Source: Candidatus Undinarchaeota archaeon (GTDB lineage: Archaea > Undinarchaeota > Undinarchaeia > Undinarchaeales > UBA543). Taken from it: 15,101 nt of DNA. The stretch covers positions 1 to 15,101 of the forward strand of contig CAZWSR010000014.1 in assembly GCA_964636545.1 (NCBI GenBank). Reading direction: 5' to 3'. Positions within the stretch are counted from its first letter, which is position 1. The number at the start of each line of letters is the position of its first letter. The translations under genes were made by a program, and so were the position numbers. The notes below the pieces were generated by a model, which did not search any database, was not told the origin of the DNA, and saw only the letters and a list, made by a program, of their open reading frames with translations. Shown here piece after piece: positions 8,624 through 13,358 of this stretch.

Positions 8624-10099
8624 CTACCGTTTCAACTTCCACTTAACACCTTTTTTTGTGTCTTCCAAAATAATTCCTAATTTATCAAGCTCATTTCTGA
8701 GCCGGTCAGACTTATCATAATCTTTGTTAGTTCTTGCTTGATCGCGAATTTCAATAACTAAATTCATTAAATCACCAAATGTTTTGAATTTAGTTTTGTC
8801 AGATTTCAAATCTTTTACAAGTTTTGTAACAGAATCAATAATTGCTTCAGTTACTTGCGGTTCTGCTGGATTAAACAAGTTAAAAATATTATCAAGATCT
8901 TCAAATTCTTCAAGGAATTTTCTCAGAACTTTGCTAGTGTGCTTGCCTTCTATATATATATTAGCAAGTTTGGAAAGCTCGAAAAGTTTTGCAAGAGCAA
9001 TGCTTGTGTTGAAATCATCATCCAATGCAGAGAGAATTTCAGTTTTTATTCTTGTGATTTCTTTTGAAATTTTCTTGTCAGCAGGTGTTTCTTTTTCACC
9101 AGTTGCAACACCAAGTGCGTGCTTTATATTATTAATAGTATTAAGCAACTTATCAAGATTAGTTTTGGCTTGCTCAAGATAAATATCTGCAAAATCAATT
9201 TGAGAACGATAATGGGTTGAGAGAAGAAAGAACCGCAAAGTGCTTGCATCATATCGCTTTAGAAGCTCGCGAATTGTTGAGAAATTTTTGAGCGACTTGC
9301 TCATTTTTGCTTTGTTAACTGTCACAAAACCATTGTGCAACCAATATTTCACAAATTTCTTTCCAGTATATGATTCACTTTGAGCAATTTCATTAGTATG
9401 ATGTGGGAAAATTAAATCTTGTCCACCGCCGTGAATATCCAGAGTTTCTCCTAAGTATTTCATGGACATTGCAGAACATTCAATATGCCAACCAGGTCGG
9501 CCAGCACCCCAAGGTGAATCCCAGAAAATCTCTCCTTTTTTAGCTTTTTTCCAGAGAGCAAAATCAAGTGGCTCGTCTTTCAAAGTGGACGCTTCTATTC
9601 GCTTTCCAGTCTCCATTTCATCCAAATTCATTCCAGAAAGTTTTGTGTAATTCTTGGCTTTAGAAACAGAGAAATAAACATCGCCGTCAACATGATAAGC
9701 AAATCCTTTTTCAATTAGACCTCTGATAAGATCAATTATTTCAGGAAGTGATTCAGTTGCTTTTGGCTGGAAATCTGGTTTTTGAATTCCAAGAGCATCC
9801 ATATCAGTATTAAATTCTTGAGCAAAACGTGCAGCTAGCGCTAATGGATTAGTTTTTTCTTCATTTGCGCGCTTGATAATTTTGTCCTCAACATCAGTAA
9901 TGTTTTGAACATAAGTTACCTTAAGGCCTTTGTATCGAAGATACCTATTTACAATATCAAAAGCAACATAAGCACGAGCATGCCCCAGATGGGCATAGTC
10001 GTAACAAGTTGGACCACACACATACATGTGAACTTGCCCAGGCTTCATTGGCTTGAAAATTTCTTTTTTCCGAGTCAATGTGTTGTAGAGTTTTAGCAT
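8624..10099 (-). CDS. cysS: Cysteine--tRNA ligase
   Basis: MLKLYNTLTR, YVCGPT, HLGH (HIGH motif), GRPGWHIECSAM, DIHGGGQDLIFPHH, KMSKS, ALDDDFNT. Confidence 0.98.
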   Translation of the reverse strand: MLKLYNTLTRKKEIFKPMKPGQVHMYVCGPTCYDYAHLGHARAYVAFDIVNRYLRYKGLKVTYVQNITDVEDKIIKRANEEKTNPLALAARFAQEFNTDMDALGIQKPDFQPKATESLPEIIDLIRGLIEKGFAYHVDGDVYFSVSKAKNYTKLSGMNLDEMETGKRIEASTLKDEPLDFALWKKAKKGEIFWDSPWGAGRPGWHIECSAMSMKYLGETLDIHGGGQDLIFPHHTNEIAQSESYTGKKFVKYWLHNGFVTVNKAKMSKSLKNFSTIRELLKRYDASTLRFFLLSTHYRSQIDFADIYLEQAKTNLDKLLNTINNIKHALGVATGEKETPADKKISKEITRIKTEILSALDDDFNTSIALAKLFELSKLANIYIEGKHTSKVLRKFLEEFEDLDNIFNLFNPAEPQVTEAIIDSVTKLVKDLKSDKTKFKTFGDLMNLVIEIRDQARTNKDYDKSDRLRNELDKLGIILEDTKKGVKWKLKR

Positions 10100-10100
10100 C

Positions 10101-11012
10101 TTAATCCACCTTAAATATCGGCGTACTTAAGTATTTCGCGCCACCATCTGGAAGAACAGTTACAACAATTCCACTCTCAAGCTTCTCTGCCTCTTGCAAA
10201 GCAATATGCATTGCAGCACCAGAGCTCATTCCAGCAAAGATTCCTTCTTCTTTTGCTAGCGCTTTTGTCCACTTAACAGCATCTTCCTGAGTCACATTGA
10301 TTTTCTCATCCACAAAATCTTCCTTAAAGATTGATGGAGGAAATGGCTCGCCCATGTTTCTCAAACCCTGAATTGGCTTGCCAAGGAAAGGCTCTACTGC
10401 AACTATTCTGGCATCTGGATATTTTTCTTTAATCCGTCTTCCAGCACCCATTATAGTTCCGCCAGTGCCGATTCCTGCAACAAACACATCAATTTTTCCA
10501 GGCACTTGGTTAACAAGTTCAATACCAGTTGTTTCATAATGTGCTTGCTCATTTGAAGGGTTGTTAAATTGATCCGGGAGGAAGTATTTGTCAGGATTCT
10601 CCTTAGCCATTTTGTAACCATCTTCAACAGCCCCAGGAGTACCCCTTGACCCTTCAGTTAGGACAAGTTCAGCACCAAATGCCTTGAGAAAAGCTCTTCG
10701 CTCAACACTAACGCTTTCAGGCATCACAAACAAGGTTTTGTAGCCCTTTTGGGCCGCCACCATTGCCAAACCAATTCCAGTATTGCCTGAAGTTGGCTCA
10801 AGAATGATCTTGTCTTTTGTGAGCTTTCCAGTGCGCTCAGCATCTGCTATCATATACTTGGCAATTCTGTCTTTCACAGAGCCGCCAGCATTATTCCGCT
10901 CTAACTTGACGTAGAGCGAAACATTCTTGTTTCGGTTCAGTTTGTTTATTTTCACAACCGGAGTTTCACCGATCAATGCGTTTACATTTGCCTTAGCGGC
11001 AAAGGTAACCAC
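10101..11012 (-). CDS. cysM: PLP-dependent cysteine synthase (CysK/CysM family, CysM-like IQGLRN loop)
   Basis: GGSVKDR (PLP lysine), EPTSGNTG, QFNNPSN, GIGTGGT, GMSSGAA, PDGGAKYLST. Stop is 1 nt from the cysS start. The GTG start is uncertain (see findings) and the CysK vs CysM assignment is tentative. Confidence 0.9.
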   Translation of the reverse strand: MVTFAAKANVNALIGETPVVKINKLNRNKNVSLYVKLERNNAGGSVKDRIAKYMIADAERTGKLTKDKIILEPTSGNTGIGLAMVAAQKGYKTLFVMPESVSVERRAFLKAFGAELVLTEGSRGTPGAVEDGYKMAKENPDKYFLPDQFNNPSNEQAHYETTGIELVNQVPGKIDVFVAGIGTGGTIMGAGRRIKEKYPDARIVAVEPFLGKPIQGLRNMGEPFPPSIFKEDFVDEKINVTQEDAVKWTKALAKEEGIFAGMSSGAAMHIALQEAEKLESGIVVTVLPDGGAKYLSTPIFKVD

Positions 11013-11040
11013 TATTTTTTCCTAAAGTTTTTTCACTCAT
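10993..11040 (-). CDS. Possible short uORF MSEKTLGKNSGYLCR overlapping the cysteine synthase start (or the frameshifted N-terminus of that gene)
   Basis: AGGAG SD at 11050-11054, 9 nt before ATG 11040. TAA at 10993-10995. Out of frame with GTG 11012 by one nucleotide. Confidence 0.4.
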   Translation of the reverse strand: MSEKTLGKNSGYLCR

Positions 11041-11061
11041 TTTTGTAATCTCCTAAAATTA

Positions 11062-11088
11062 GACATCTGATAGTTAATATCAAATATC
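11062..11088 (-). other. Hairpin immediately 3' of tRNA-Cys
   Basis: GATATTTGATA-TTAAC-TATCAGATGTC: 11-bp stem with two G-U pairs. Confidence 0.55.
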
Positions 11089-11091
11089 TGA

Positions 11092-11164
11092 AGCAGGGAG
11101 GGGGATTTGAACCCCCATCATGCGCTCTGCAGGCGCACGCATAACCGGGTTTTGCTATCCCTGC
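11092..11164 (-). tRNA. tRNA-Cys (GCA)
   Basis: Acceptor stem GCAGGGA/TCCCTGC with U discriminator, anticodon arm TGCGC-CTGCAGA-GCGCA, T arm GGGGG-TTCAAAT-CCCCC. No encoded CCA and no intron. Confidence 0.97.
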
Positions 11165-11231
11165 GCTTTTTTTTAAAAAAGTCACTAGCAAAGAAATTTT
11201 AAAGAAAAGAGGAACACCTATGAATCTGTTT

Positions 11232-11273
11232 TCAACAACAGCAACAACAACAAATTTTGTCTGTGTTCATCAT
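11232..11273 (-). CDS. Putative polycysteine leader peptide MMNTDKICCCCCC
   Basis: ATG ATG AAC ACA GAC AAA ATT TGT TGT TGT TGC TGT TGT TGA: six consecutive Cys codons then a stop, directly upstream of tRNA-Cys, cysteine synthase and cysS. Confidence 0.8.
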   Translation of the reverse strand: MMNTDKICCCCCC

Positions 11274-11293
11274 TTTGAGAGTAGCAGTGGTAG

Positions 11294-11301
11294 TATTTAA
11301 A
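11294..11301 (-). promoter_or_regulatory. Archaeal TATA box for the leader peptide / cysteine operon
   Basis: TTTAAATA beginning 28 and 31 nt upstream of the two tandem ATGs, consistent with a leaderless transcript. Confidence 0.6.
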
Positions 11302-11302
11302 T

Positions 11303-11638
11303 TTAACTTAAAGTGCAATCAGATGTTGGCTCTTCATCAACTAAACCATCGCCATCATCGTCCTCACCATTCCAAGTTCGCATTTCACACGCTTGTTCAT
11401 TAATACACAAGCAACCGCCAGTGTTGTCACAAGCTAGTTCATTGCAATCAAGATCAGCGCAGTCAATTAGACCATCATTATCATTATCCAATTCATCATA
11501 ACAATTTGTTTCAGCAGTATCAAATCCAGCAGCTTCAGTAAACTTTCCAACCATGCCAGAGTTACTAGATAAATAAAAGGCTCCGCCACCAACAAGTAAG
11601 AGTGCTATAAAAACGATGATGATTATTTTCAATTCCAT
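11303..11638 (-). CDS. Small membrane-anchored Asp/Cys-rich protein with putative metal (Ca)-binding repeats
   Basis: N-terminal TM helix. ETNCYDELDNDNDGLIDCADLDC and NGEDDDGDGLVDE are DxDxDG-type repeats. TTTTATAC box at 11663-11670. Confidence 0.8.
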   Translation of the reverse strand: MELKIIIIVFIALLLVGGGAFYLSSNSGMVGKFTEAAGFDTAETNCYDELDNDNDGLIDCADLDCNELACDNTGGCLCINEQACEMRTWNGEDDDGDGLVDEEPTSDCTLS

Positions 11639-11704
11639 TGCACAGATATTGTGAACTTGCTGGTATAAAAGGGTTTTGTGGAGAGATTGCGGATATGGTT
11701 AATA

Positions 11705-11771
11705 AGGCAGTGGGTAGTGGGCACTAGGCAGTAGGTCTGACCTACCACCCACTGCCTAATGCCTACTGCCC
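11705..11771. repeat. Intergenic symmetric inverted repeat built from heptamer units
   Basis: AGGCAGT GGGTAGT GGGCACT AGGCAGT AGGTC-T-GACCT ACCACCC ACTGCCT AATGCCT ACTGCCC. The core GTAGGTC-T-GACCTAC is a perfect inverted repeat. Confidence 0.85.
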
Positions 11772-11788
11772 GAACCAATAGGATAAAC

Positions 11789-11796
11789 TTATAAAC
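11789..11796 (+). promoter_or_regulatory. Archaeal BRE/TATA for the thiI operon
   Basis: Purine-rich GGATAAA followed by TTATAAAC, 35 nt upstream of ATG 11824. Confidence 0.55.
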
Positions 11797-11823
11797 ACCT
11801 TATCTACCTAACCCTACAACTAG

Positions 11824-12489
11824 ATGGCACAGAAAACCTCAGCTCAAAAGAGTAGCGGAAATAAAGTCGTCTCATTAATCTCGGGCGGCATTGACTCTCC
11901 GGTTGCATCATCTCTGATGCTCGACCAGGGTCTTGAAGTGATTTTTGCGCACTGCGACAGCAGACCATTTACGAAAAATGAAACAGTTGATAAAACAAAA
12001 GAGCTAATAAAAATTCTTGCAAAGCGTTACAAAATAAAGCCACGGCTCTACATGATACCGCATGCTCCAGTACAATCTGCTATTCTTGAAAAAGTTGATC
12101 ACAAAGTTCTTTGTGTAATTTGCAAGCGAATGATGTACCGAGTTGTTGAGAAAATTGCTGAAAAAGAAAAAGCTCATGCACTTGTGACTGGCGAGAACCT
12201 TGGCCAAGTTGCTTCTCAGACACTTGATAATCTTGTTGTTGAGGATTCTGCAATAGGACTCCCAATTCTTCGCCCATTGCTTGGATATGACAAAAACGAA
12301 ATCATAGAAATTGCTAAGAAAATAAACACATATTGGGTTTCAATACTTCCAGGAGTTTGCTGTAAGTTTGTTCCAAAATACCCTGAAACTCATTCTGAAC
12401 TTAAAGAAATTGAAAAACTAGAAAAACAAATTGATATTAAAAAACTTGTTAGTGATGCAGTGAAAAACGCAAAGGAGGTAGCACTATGA
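11824..12489 (+). CDS. thiI: tRNA 4-thiouridine synthase ThiI, catalytic PP-loop domain only (CxxC type, no THUMP domain)
   Basis: SGGIDSPVA PP-loop, CVICKRMM, TGENLGQVASQTLDNL, RPLLGYDKNEII and a downstream CC. Only 221 aa. Confidence 0.9.
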   Translation: MAQKTSAQKSSGNKVVSLISGGIDSPVASSLMLDQGLEVIFAHCDSRPFTKNETVDKTKELIKILAKRYKIKPRLYMIPHAPVQSAILEKVDHKVLCVICKRMMYRVVEKIAEKEKAHALVTGENLGQVASQTLDNLVVEDSAIGLPILRPLLGYDKNEIIEIAKKINTYWVSILPGVCCKFVPKYPETHSELKEIEKLEKQIDIKKLVSDAVKNAKEVAL

Positions 12490-13358
12490 AATTTGACACA
12501 ATCCTTGTGCGTTATGGAGAAATTGGTTTGAAAAGTCCACAGACAAGACGAATTTTTGAAAACAAGTTTATGGAAAATATCAAAGGACTTCTTAACAAAC
12601 ATGTTATTGATTTTGAAGATATTAAAACAGAATGGGGCAGAGTTTACATTAACACAACTGACGAGAATGCTCTTAAATTACTTAGAACAATTTTTGGAAC
12701 AGCTACATTTTCACCAGCAGCATCTTGCTCAGCAGACATGAAAGAAATTTCAAAATTATCATTAGTAGTTGCAAAAAGTAAAATTAAGAAAGAAGATACA
12801 TTTGCTGTTCGCGTTTCAAGACAAGGAATTCATGATTTCAAAAGTCGCGACATCAAAAAACAAATTGGTTCTGACATAAAAAAAGCAACTGAAGCAGGTG
12901 TTGATTTAGATAAGCCAAACCGCGAAGTTTTTGTTGAAGTGCGGAACAAAAAAGCTTATGTTTTTGTTGAAAAAATTCCAGGACCTGGTGGAATTCCGCA
13001 GGGGATTGAAGGAAAAGTGCTTGGGATTTTTGATGAGAAAAAACCATATCAGGTAGCTGCTTATTTAATGGCAAAGCGCGGTTGTGAAATTGAAGCAGTT
13101 GCTTCAAAAGAACTTGATTTAGGTAATTTAAAACACTGGCTTGGTGATTTCAAAGTTCATATTGTTGATTCAAAAGATCTTTACAAAGAAACTGAGAGAA
13201 TTGCAAAAGAGCAGAAAATCAAAGCGATTTTCACAGCAGATGGGCTAAATGAATTGCAAGATTTTAAGAAAATTAAAATTAATGTTCCAATCTTCAGACC
13301 TTTGATTGGTTTGGATGAGAGGAAAATTAAAATTGTTGAGCAGAGTATAAATGGATAG
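12486..13358 (+). CDS. ThiI-like THUMP domain protein with degenerate C-terminal PP-loop domain
   Basis: ILVRYGEIGLKS (ThiI N-terminus), TFAVRVSR..H.F.S, VDLDKP...VEVR, GPGGIPQG.EGKV. SGGIDS is absent but AAYLMAKRGC and PIFRPLIGLD remain. ATGA overlap and GGAGG SD. Confidence 0.88.
   Translation: MKFDTILVRYGEIGLKSPQTRRIFENKFMENIKGLLNKHVIDFEDIKTEWGRVYINTTDENALKLLRTIFGTATFSPAASCSADMKEISKLSLVVAKSKIKKEDTFAVRVSRQGIHDFKSRDIKKQIGSDIKKATEAGVDLDKPNREVFVEVRNKKAYVFVEKIPGPGGIPQGIEGKVLGIFDEKKPYQVAAYLMAKRGCEIEAVASKELDLGNLKHWLGDFKVHIVDSKDLYKETERIAKEQKIKAIFTADGLNELQDFKKIKINVPIFRPLIGLDERKIKIVEQSING

Follow-up and report, generated by a model that had tools for sequence, protein, structure and literature searches.

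A candidate Cys-tRNA-sensing leader open reading frame ahead of the tRNA-Cys, cysK and cysS genes of Undinarchaeota

A polycysteine reading frame at the head of a cysteine operon

A 15,101-nucleotide (nt) stretch of DNA from a Candidatus Undinarchaeota archaeon (contig CAZWSR010000014.1 of assembly GCA_964636545.1; hereafter the window) carries on its minus strand, in this order, the gene for a cysteine transfer RNA (tRNA-Cys), cysK for cysteine synthase and cysS for cysteine--tRNA ligase. Ahead of these genes lies a short open reading frame (ORF) whose last six sense codons all specify Cys, and its conservation in related genomes suggests that it is probably a leader ORF that senses Cys-tRNA and acts in cis on the genes behind it. 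Coordinates are window positions throughout. The window's own genome (G000) comprises 840,427 bases in 39 contigs, with 37% G+C and 83% completeness, and is archaeal, as the archaeal small- and large-subunit ribosomal RNA models win their Rfam clans on contig C31. Introns are predicted by ARAGORN in 9 of its 43 tRNA genes.

The codons of the leader ORF read ATG ATG AAC ACA GAC AAA ATT TGT TGT TGT TGC TGT TGT TGA, in agreement with the original prediction of a minus-strand ORF at 11273-11232 with five TGT codons and one TGC codon ahead of TGA. The U-rich tracts that the same prediction had described in a 67-nt spacer between the ORF and the tRNA are likewise present, and its assignment of the downstream genes to cysteine supply is upheld by ARAGORN and Rfam for tRNA-Cys and by scores above the NCBIfam cut-offs for the two proteins (370.5 bits against 344.15 for the cysK-frame product and TIGR01136, cysKM; 558.9 bits against 340 for CysS and TIGR00435). 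The putative TATA box of the leader, TTTAAATA, stands 20 nt from the first ATG (11273) and 23 nt from the second (11270). It had been described as spaced for transcription to start near the ATG, and so it is, with the amendment that the second ATG makes a slightly better start than the first, since the corresponding distance in relatives is 22-25 nt (with the boxes CTTAAATA, TTTAAATA or TATAAATA) and since 488 ORF starts taken genome-wide show a T-then-A enrichment at -30 to -23, together with a weaker G signal at -12 to -8. Such a profile suggests that many mRNAs of this organism are leaderless.

Counted on both strands and in any frame, G000 contains 18 runs of at least four TGY codons (Y, a pyrimidine), fifteen of them with four codons, two with five and one with six; the last and longest is that of the leader. 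When the 250 nt upstream of each of the 43 tRNA genes were searched in any frame for a run of at least four cognate codons, tRNA-Cys alone possessed one. Two SSS runs upstream of tRNA-Ser genes were rejected as not belonging to ATG-started short ORFs. Contigs of four DNA sequencing runs, one of them possibly the source sample, span positions 11195-11420 with the ORF unchanged.

Table 1. Features of the leader and operon (window coordinates; every peptide is followed directly by a stop codon; MFE, minimum free energy)
Feature	Position	Strand	Basis or remark
TATA box TTTAAATA of the leader promoter	11294..11301	(-)	sequence; putative function
Leader ORF, MMNTDKICCCCCC	11232..11273	(-)	ATG, frame and Cys run kept in relatives
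Alternative leader start, MNTDKICCCCCC, 12 codons	11270	(-)	
Six Cys codons, TGT TGT TGT TGC TGT TGT	11235..11252	(-)	sole TGY run of at least 6 in the genome
Hairpin 1, enclosing the Cys codons and stop	11212..11268	(-)	MFE fold
Conserved CAUAGG, 3' arm of hairpin 1	11217..11222	(-)	alignment
Pyrimidine/U-rich tract CCUCUUUUCUUU, right after hairpin 1	11201..11212	(-)	candidate role in termination
Hairpin 2, ending 1-2 nt ahead of the tRNA	11166..11209	(-)	MFE fold
Conserved hairpin 2 loop motif AAAUUUCUUUGCUAGUGA	11182..11199	(-)	alignments A2, A3
tRNA-Cys (GCA)	11092..11164	(-)	ARAGORN; Rfam RF00005, 62.3 bits
cysK zero-frame start, MSEKTLGKNSGYLCR	10993..11040	(-)	AGGAG before ATG 11040
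Candidate +1 shift site CUU_U	11004-11001	(-)	next codon UGC
cysK body, +1 frame, cysteine synthase	10101..11000	(-)	NCBIfam profile match
cysS, cysteine--tRNA ligase	8624..10099	(-)	starts 1 nt past the cysK stop

Conservation of the leader across the phylum

The comparison set comprised 17 species genomes of the phylum, 13 of them from the window's order. The tRNA-Cys gene was located in 13 of the 17; pattern searches did not locate it in G010, G013, G014 or G015, and three further pattern matches in the phylum were rejected on account of a TTGCAA anticodon loop, which denotes Ala. Nine of the 13 genomes with tRNA-Cys (G000-G005, G008, G011 and G016, from five families) possess, 49-149 nt upstream of it, an ORF of 9-13 codons that starts with ATG and contains, at or close to its end, 3-6 Cys codons in frame. 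The peptides, each followed by a stop, read MMNTDKICCCCCC, MEPKTIECCCCCC and MKSKTFDCCCCCQ in family f1 (G000, G001 and G002, respectively), MNQIRLCCCCC in f2 (G003), MKRNLCGCCCSQ in f3 (G004), MKSELCCCC (G005 and G008) and MKLNLCCCC (G011) in f4, and MKAKILCCC in f9 (G016), a family of another order.

A sixth family with the element is represented by G014, where an ORF reading MTAKVCCC and a stop lies some 110 nt ahead of cysK, without an intervening tRNA and with a TATA-like box 25-26 nt before it. Because this ORF precedes cysK directly, the leader ORF is, judging by gene order, tied to genes of cysteine supply rather than to the tRNA itself. Moreover, a metagenome scan with a leader-specific pattern returned 19 stretches, three of which were real: one new copy (MDLTLICCCC, L206) and two that match the sequences of G001 and G003 over the stretch compared. 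The other 16 were false matches. Six more in-frame ORFs of the form ATG...CCC-stop in the phylum were also rejected, as they lie inside longer frames or coding regions and lack both a TATA box and a tRNA.

What is kept and what varies among these elements is informative. The N-termini differ widely (MNTDKI, MEPKTIE, MKSKTFD, MKRNL, MKLNL, MNQIRL, MKSEL, MKAKIL), all three stop codons (TGA, TAA and TAG) are used, and the ORFs change in length by whole codons only. The Cys codons of G001, G005/G008, G011, G016, G014 and the metagenome copy differ from those of the window at the third base only; the non-Cys changes consist of a CUG in G003 where f1 has a Cys codon, a GGT inside the run of G004 and G007, and a GAC ahead of the run of G002, at a position occupied by another Cys codon in the longest runs. 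In 11 of 12 elements, the ATG is preceded at 20-26 nt by a TATA-like box, and an ATG at TATA distance with an in-frame stop is likewise retained in 11 of the 12. On this comparative evidence, such variation is characteristic of a leader ORF whose message lies in its codons, and the ORF would be a sensor and not a product. Conservation of the ATG, the frame and the Cys run, by which the original prediction was to be judged, is clear in five families before tRNA-Cys and in the sixth before cysK, and the synonymous TGT/TGC variation sought with it is present in relatives, where the TATA spacing and the place ahead of cysteine-supply genes are also kept. As read from the alignments, such conservation fits a translated, Cys-sensing leader and fits its rivals poorly.

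Beyond the phylum, no Cys run linked to tRNA-Cys was found in 384 archaeal genomes with a pattern that combines an anticodon and T arm of tRNA-Cys type with three TGY codons located 70-250 nt upstream, a pattern that recovers nine of nine intron-free positives, misses intron-bearing tRNA-Cys genes (G007, G168) and has its sensitivity calibrated inside the phylum only. Its eight matches outside the phylum, in six genomes, contain no tRNA-Cys according to ARAGORN, two of them being tRNA-Ala(UGC) and the rest no tRNA. A looser, domain-wide pattern matched 151 of 401 genomes, and none of the 30 new loci (L162-L191) had a tRNA-Cys.

Several further features of the tRNA-Cys loci were recorded. That of G007 (L055, 941-1194) carries a 179-nt intron after the anticodon, according to ARAGORN. 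In G008 (L013) and G003 (L007/L197), a second T arm and 3' acceptor strand lie 60-150 nt downstream of tRNA-Cys, as if from a partial duplicate or a split or intron-bearing tRNA. Finally, two genomes of another family, G028 and G051, have clusters (L010 and L011) of cysK, tRNA-Cys, cysS and a cysE-like hexapeptide-repeat gene with neither the leader ORF nor the candidate frameshift site considered below, and the linkage of tRNA-Cys, cysS and cysK is thus wider than the regulatory elements.

Leader RNA and the possible mode of control

Single-sequence folds place the Cys codons and the stop inside hairpin 1 in 9 of 11 tRNA-linked leaders. In families f2, f3 and f4, its 5' arm is formed by the Leu codon and first Cys codon (CUG UGC or CUA UGC) and its 3' arm by a conserved GCAUAG(G) 6-10 nt past the stop; the corresponding CATAG occurs at that distance in 9 of 11 leaders in alignment A2, and the invariance of the motif is attributed to its pairing as the 3' arm. 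The arms in f1 are AACCUA/UAGGUU, or, in the window, GAACAC (11268-11263) and GUGUUC (11217-11212). In the element of G014, read by eye, the Cys codons are flanked by the arms GACAGCC/GGCUGUC, with a long U-rich tract behind them, and U-rich tracts follow hairpin 1 in all leaders compared. The G014 genome also carries GCATAGGTTAAC right before the ATG of cysS (L063), a 12-mer shared with G004, where it belongs to the region of the hairpin 1 3' arm; the G014 site is without tRNA-Cys and without a Cys run, and may be a leader remnant or a ribosome-binding context.

Hairpin 2 follows, with stems that differ by family (CCUCUU/AAGAGG, CUAGUUCUC/GGGAACUAG, GUUCUC/GAGAAC, and an A/U stem in the window) around a loop that has a conserved core, AAAUUUCUUUGnUAGUGA, and contains TTTCTTTG or a close variant in 8 of 11 leaders. 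This loop motif may be a pause or termination tract, or else a second promoter box. One U.G pair in the stem of G003 and three in that of G007 would become A.C on the opposite strand. Hairpin 2, as modelled, is therefore an RNA element of the leader strand and, given these U.G pairs, must form part of the RNA made from the upstream promoter.

The simplest reading of these features is a switch with one hairpin. A leaderless transcript would start at the ATG of the 12-13-codon ORF. When Cys-tRNA(Cys) is plentiful, the ribosome would pass the Cys run, terminate and leave, upon which hairpin 1 could fold and, at the U-rich tracts ahead of tRNA-Cys, transcription would stop or the RNA be cut. With Cys-tRNA(Cys) in short supply, the ribosome would wait in the run and cover the 5' arm, hairpin 1 would be blocked, and RNA polymerase would continue into tRNA-Cys, cysK and cysS. 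In this scheme, we infer the translation of the ORF, its co-transcription with the tRNA, the stalling of the ribosome, the direction of the effect and termination as the regulated step. Control of translation is impossible at the tRNA-linked leaders, because the first gene behind them is a tRNA. Termination or cleavage is favoured for this reason, and also because G000 encodes aCPSF1/FttA (TIGR03675, 937 bits against a cut-off of 580) and because there is precedent for U tracts acting with aCPSF1: in the accessible portions of two studies, archaeal termination proceeds by a U-tract plus aCPSF1, which sets termination efficiency (PMC8716108, PMC11616081). When the folds of 10 leaders were constrained so that the ORF was blocked, as by a ribosome, either at the Cys run or at the stop, hairpin 1 was lost and hairpin 2 unchanged. 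Taken by itself, a termination step at hairpin 1 and its U tract is a tentative proposal, and one that we hold to be rather less probable than the sensor. The ribosome-stalling attenuator of the original prediction is therefore supported in part, its sensor strongly so by conservation, while its attenuation step is something we infer.

A number of observations weigh against this reading. The constrained folds of the 10 leaders revealed no alternative, antiterminator pairing with the ORF blocked, and a search of 10950-11350 for bacterial-type terminators returned none; hairpin 1 is followed by interrupted U tracts only, and no GC-rich hairpin runs straight into a U run. Hairpins are not known to be required for termination in archaea. 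Fold z-scores range from -3.11 to +1.29 across 11 leaders and reach -2 or lower in three of the 11; that of the window is +0.36, with 122 of 200 shuffles folding as well. RNAalifold returned no consensus pairs on the MAFFT alignments A2 (11 whole leaders) or A3 (nine hairpin 2 sequences), an outcome attributed to arms that are out of register in the alignments, and the hairpins are accordingly defined by single-sequence folds and visual reading and not by covariation. The G016 leader has the ORF and no convincing hairpins. In G007 (f2), the assignment is ambiguous: MDQKKKKSKCGCCS is in frame only with an ATG that lacks a properly spaced TATA box, and the ATG at the right TATA distance reads MRLL and a stop. 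All three genomes of family f5 have tRNA-Cys behind its own TATA box, with no leader ORF. A second promoter serving the tRNA, in line with the start site downstream of the ORF that the original prediction named as a refuting case, is also possible, on sequence grounds, in the A/T-rich loop of hairpin 2, which reads CTTAAATTT in G005/G008, close to the lineage's promoter box CTTAAATA. The counts of elements given above overstate independence, the genomes being kin, and the sequencing runs listed for the locus are DNA runs only, with no RNA run among them.

The main alternative to termination is that the ribosome on the Cys run sets the processing or lifetime of the precursor RNA, for example through access of ribonuclease P (RNase P) to a leader folded up to the tRNA, or through protection of the 5' end from decay. 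Here, the sensor would be the same and the output different. The want of a terminator/antiterminator alternative in the constrained folds, and of a strong oligo-U terminator kept at one place, speaks for such an output, as does the end of hairpin 2 at 0-2 nt before the mature 5' end of the tRNA in the three f1 genomes and G011. In G003, G004, G005, G007 and G008, however, hairpin 2 and the tRNA are 15-110 nt apart, so that contact with RNase P is not conserved, and the element of G014 serves cysK where there is no tRNA. An output at the level of processing or stability is thus a minority view, though one with a real chance of being correct.

Other rivals dispense with the sensor. The ORF might be an independent gene for a Cys-rich micropeptide with a metal or redox function, with the tRNA promoter in the hairpin 2 loop and the neighbourhood a matter of synteny. 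A TTTAAAA/CTTAAATTT motif does lie 27-50 nt ahead of the tRNA in most leaders (in the window, the TTTAAAA at about 11197-11203 sits in the conserved loop), and family f5 shows that tRNA-Cys is able to run from a TATA box of its own. Against a micropeptide, the Cys run alone is conserved in the peptide and varies in length from 3 to 6, the ORF precedes cysK in G014 and so follows the cysteine-supply genes rather than the tRNA, and the 5' arm of hairpin 2 lies upstream of any second transcription start site while its U.G pairs need the RNA of this strand; we consider a micropeptide gene improbable. Slightly more improbable still is an element of RNA only, in which the UGY repeats and hairpins work untranslated, for instance by T-box-like binding of tRNA-Cys or through contact with a protein. 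The GCA anticodon can pair with UGY, and the repeats do lie in a hairpin loop or stem beside conserved motifs. However, an Rfam scan of 10800-11900 (E up to 1) placed only the tRNA above its gathering score and had no T-box among the weak matches, the alignment shows no conserved UGGN-type sequence with which the tRNA 3' end could pair, and an ATG at TATA distance with an in-frame stop in 11 of 12 elements, like the whole-codon changes in length, would be needless if the RNA were untranslated. Finally, a chance or functionless (TGT)n microsatellite is very improbable, for although slippage yields trinucleotide repeats and the window's run is almost pure TGT, the run is kept across at least two orders with TGC interruptions at differing places, is identical in the contigs of the four DNA runs, and is always in frame with an ATG and a stop and always ahead of Cys genes.

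The candidate cysK frameshift site and known systems

Slow decoding of a Cys codon would also act on a second device in the same operon, which is counted in favour of the sensor. The enzyme body of cysK lies in the +1 frame relative to the ATG at 11040, and a single four-letter step at CTTT (L13) yields a CysK of 312 residues with no stop. The same layout was found in G011 (MDMENNVKRRDRLC), G004 (MKMRLNAVKVGGGLC) and G013 (MKGDLVC), each zero frame again closed by a stop; for these three, the translations show entry into the CysK frame only. Four of the seven cysK genes found in the phylum (G000, G004, G011 and G013, from four families and at least two orders) are so arranged, and those of G014, G015 and G016 have ordinary starts. 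A related case in another phylum, G168, has the same order of tRNA-Cys, cysK and cysS and a zero frame of MKGELLC and a stop if a GTG start is used; the site is ambiguous, as an in-frame ATG follows. A pattern search of 331 genomes of that phylum found the cassette in G168 only. Its tRNA-Cys-like gene before cysK (L246) is interrupted in ways that ARAGORN leaves unparsed.

Across the five loci (the window, L240, L241, L245 and L246), the zero frame ends in (C/G)UU UGY with a stop 0-1 codons later (CUU_UGC, CUU_UGU, CUU_UGC, GUU_UGU and CUU_UGU), and a P-site tRNA that slips by +1, from NUU to UUU, is placed exactly in the CysK frame. All five also have, a few nt upstream of the slip codon, a G-rich, Shine-Dalgarno-like stretch (AGUGGU, GGUGGUGG, AAGGGAU, AGGGUGAU and AAGGGG). 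In G011 and G013, no ATG, GTG or TTG occurs in the body frame before the IGNTP motif; in G000 and G004, a GTG or TTG does, and for these two genes internal initiation is a rival to frameshifting. The genome as a whole shows no enrichment of NUU_UGY-stop combined with an ATG upstream and a +1 frame that stays open (8 matches against 0-11 for six control codon sets), and the case for the site therefore depends on its conservation and on the lack of other start codons. Four further loci were rejected, L247, L248 and L289 being pattern matches other than CysK and L288 having an ordinary TTG start after GAGGTGAT.

The site is, on this comparative basis, a candidate for a programmed +1 frameshift that senses Cys-tRNA much as prfB senses its release factor. 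The prfB gene for release factor 2 (RF2) shifts at CUU_UGA_C with the help of an upstream Shine-Dalgarno-like stimulator, and Ty1 shifts at CUU_AGG_C. The cysK site resembles prfB in its CUU followed by U in the P site, where tRNA-Leu would re-pair on UUU, in a presumed slow A-site codon, in the Shine-Dalgarno-like stretch upstream and in a product that would be made only after the shift. It differs in that the slow codon would be a sense codon for Cys backed by a stop, and the signal Cys-tRNA in place of a release factor. If UGY is indeed decoded slowly there, cysteine synthase would be made only when Cys-tRNA is short, the Cys codon being the slow step. In its accessible portion, a review of archaeal recoding (PMC8211752) describes one -1 frameshift and no cellular +1 case, and the accessible part of another (PMC5009743) treats hungry-codon shifting as a side effect of starvation whose natural use is unclear. 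A literature search for programmed frameshifting and cysteine synthase in archaea retrieved no relevant report.

Beyond the operon itself, a 111-residue protein is encoded upstream (11638-11303, minus strand), with a score just below the cut-off for the acidic double-disulfide repeat family NF033662 (38.9 bits against 41), and a 581-residue protein with thioredoxin, DsbA and GILT-like domains downstream (8519-6774, minus strand), so that a cysteine-rich secreted protein and disulfide machinery adjoin the cysteine-supply genes. Farther upstream, ThiI is split in an unusual order over two overlapping plus-strand ORFs, the first (11824-12489) with the PP-loop ThiI domain and the second (12486-13358) with ferredoxin-like and THUMP domains and a partial ThiI match. 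A long, near-perfect inverted repeat at about 11698-11778, in the divergent intergenic region between the 111-residue ORF and thiI, has weak matches on both strands to microRNA precursors in Rfam.

Among described systems, the leader most resembles the polycysteine leaderless short ORFs of mycobacteria (Ms5788A and others), which, in the accessible text of their description, attenuate Cys genes (10.1101/834739). As that text presents them, they too are leaderless, lie upstream of cysteine-supply genes and have consecutive Cys codons at the 3' end, with the Cys tract within an RNA structure and a ribosome stalled for lack of Cys-tRNA as the proposed signal. The archaeal leaders likewise have at least two consecutive Cys codons before genes of Cys metabolism, and their TATA spacing points to a leaderless start. 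In the mycobacterial system, according to the same portion of that work, the Cys tract pairs with the Shine-Dalgarno sequence of the next gene, and control acts on translation, not on termination (10.1101/834739). Such a sequestering helix is absent here, where the next gene in nine genomes is a tRNA with no Shine-Dalgarno sequence to sequester; the host is archaeal, and what is controlled must be the synthesis, processing or stability of RNA. Homology in sequence between the two kinds of element is not to be expected. In G014, as judged by eye, a small hairpin overlaps the Shine-Dalgarno sequence, and the Cys tract is not involved in it.

The classical bacterial leader-peptide transcription attenuators include trpL, hisL and pheM before pheST, the last of which controls an aminoacyl-tRNA synthetase. 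Common to them and to the present element is a short ORF with a run of codons for the amino acid that its operon supplies or charges, and here, too, a cognate-codon-rich ORF is conserved while its peptide drifts. In contrast to trp-type attenuators, the leader has neither mutually exclusive terminator and antiterminator helices nor a terminator of a hairpin plus U7; moreover, it would work on leaderless mRNA, with an archaeal RNA polymerase and archaeal termination, and with a tRNA as the first controlled gene. The T-boxes found before cysS, cysK and cysE of Firmicutes follow the same logic, in that a 5' leader element ties genes of Cys-tRNA supply to the charging of tRNA-Cys. They read the uncharged tRNA by RNA-RNA contact, whereas no T-box match was obtained from Rfam here and the reader would be the ribosome.

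Sensing of aminoacyl-tRNA by a leader ORF is thus a known principle that, as far as comparative sequence evidence goes, would be new for Archaea and for a tRNA gene. The original prediction knew of no such system in archaea, and indeed no archaeal leader-peptide attenuator, nor any poly-Cys element outside mycobacteria, was found in the full-text literature searched, which left subscription journals outside. In the textbooks, leader-peptide attenuation is the regulatory form of transcription-translation coupling and is treated as a bacterial invention, and archaea couple the two processes as well. A conserved poly-Cys leader before a tRNA gene would show that the principle crosses domains, that attenuation works with leaderless mRNA and an RNA polymerase II-like enzyme, and that it controls a tRNA and a synthetase besides biosynthetic enzymes. 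If true, Archaea would gain their first leader-peptide attenuator, which would also be the first such attenuator known to govern a tRNA gene; at about 110 nt, the element is compact enough for the regulation of archaeal termination to be tested directly. A real cysK site would be the first frameshift in nature to sense an amino acid and the first cellular +1 recoding in Archaea, as well as an economical feedback loop in which the enzyme for an amino acid is switched on by that amino acid's own codon when it runs short; gene callers would be liable to mis-start or truncate cysK in such genomes. Taken together, read-through governed by a poly-Cys leader and a +1 shift at a hungry codon would amount to control of cysteine supply by the ribosome at two levels, with no protein regulator, a conjecture that we regard as quite conceivable and advance with some reserve.

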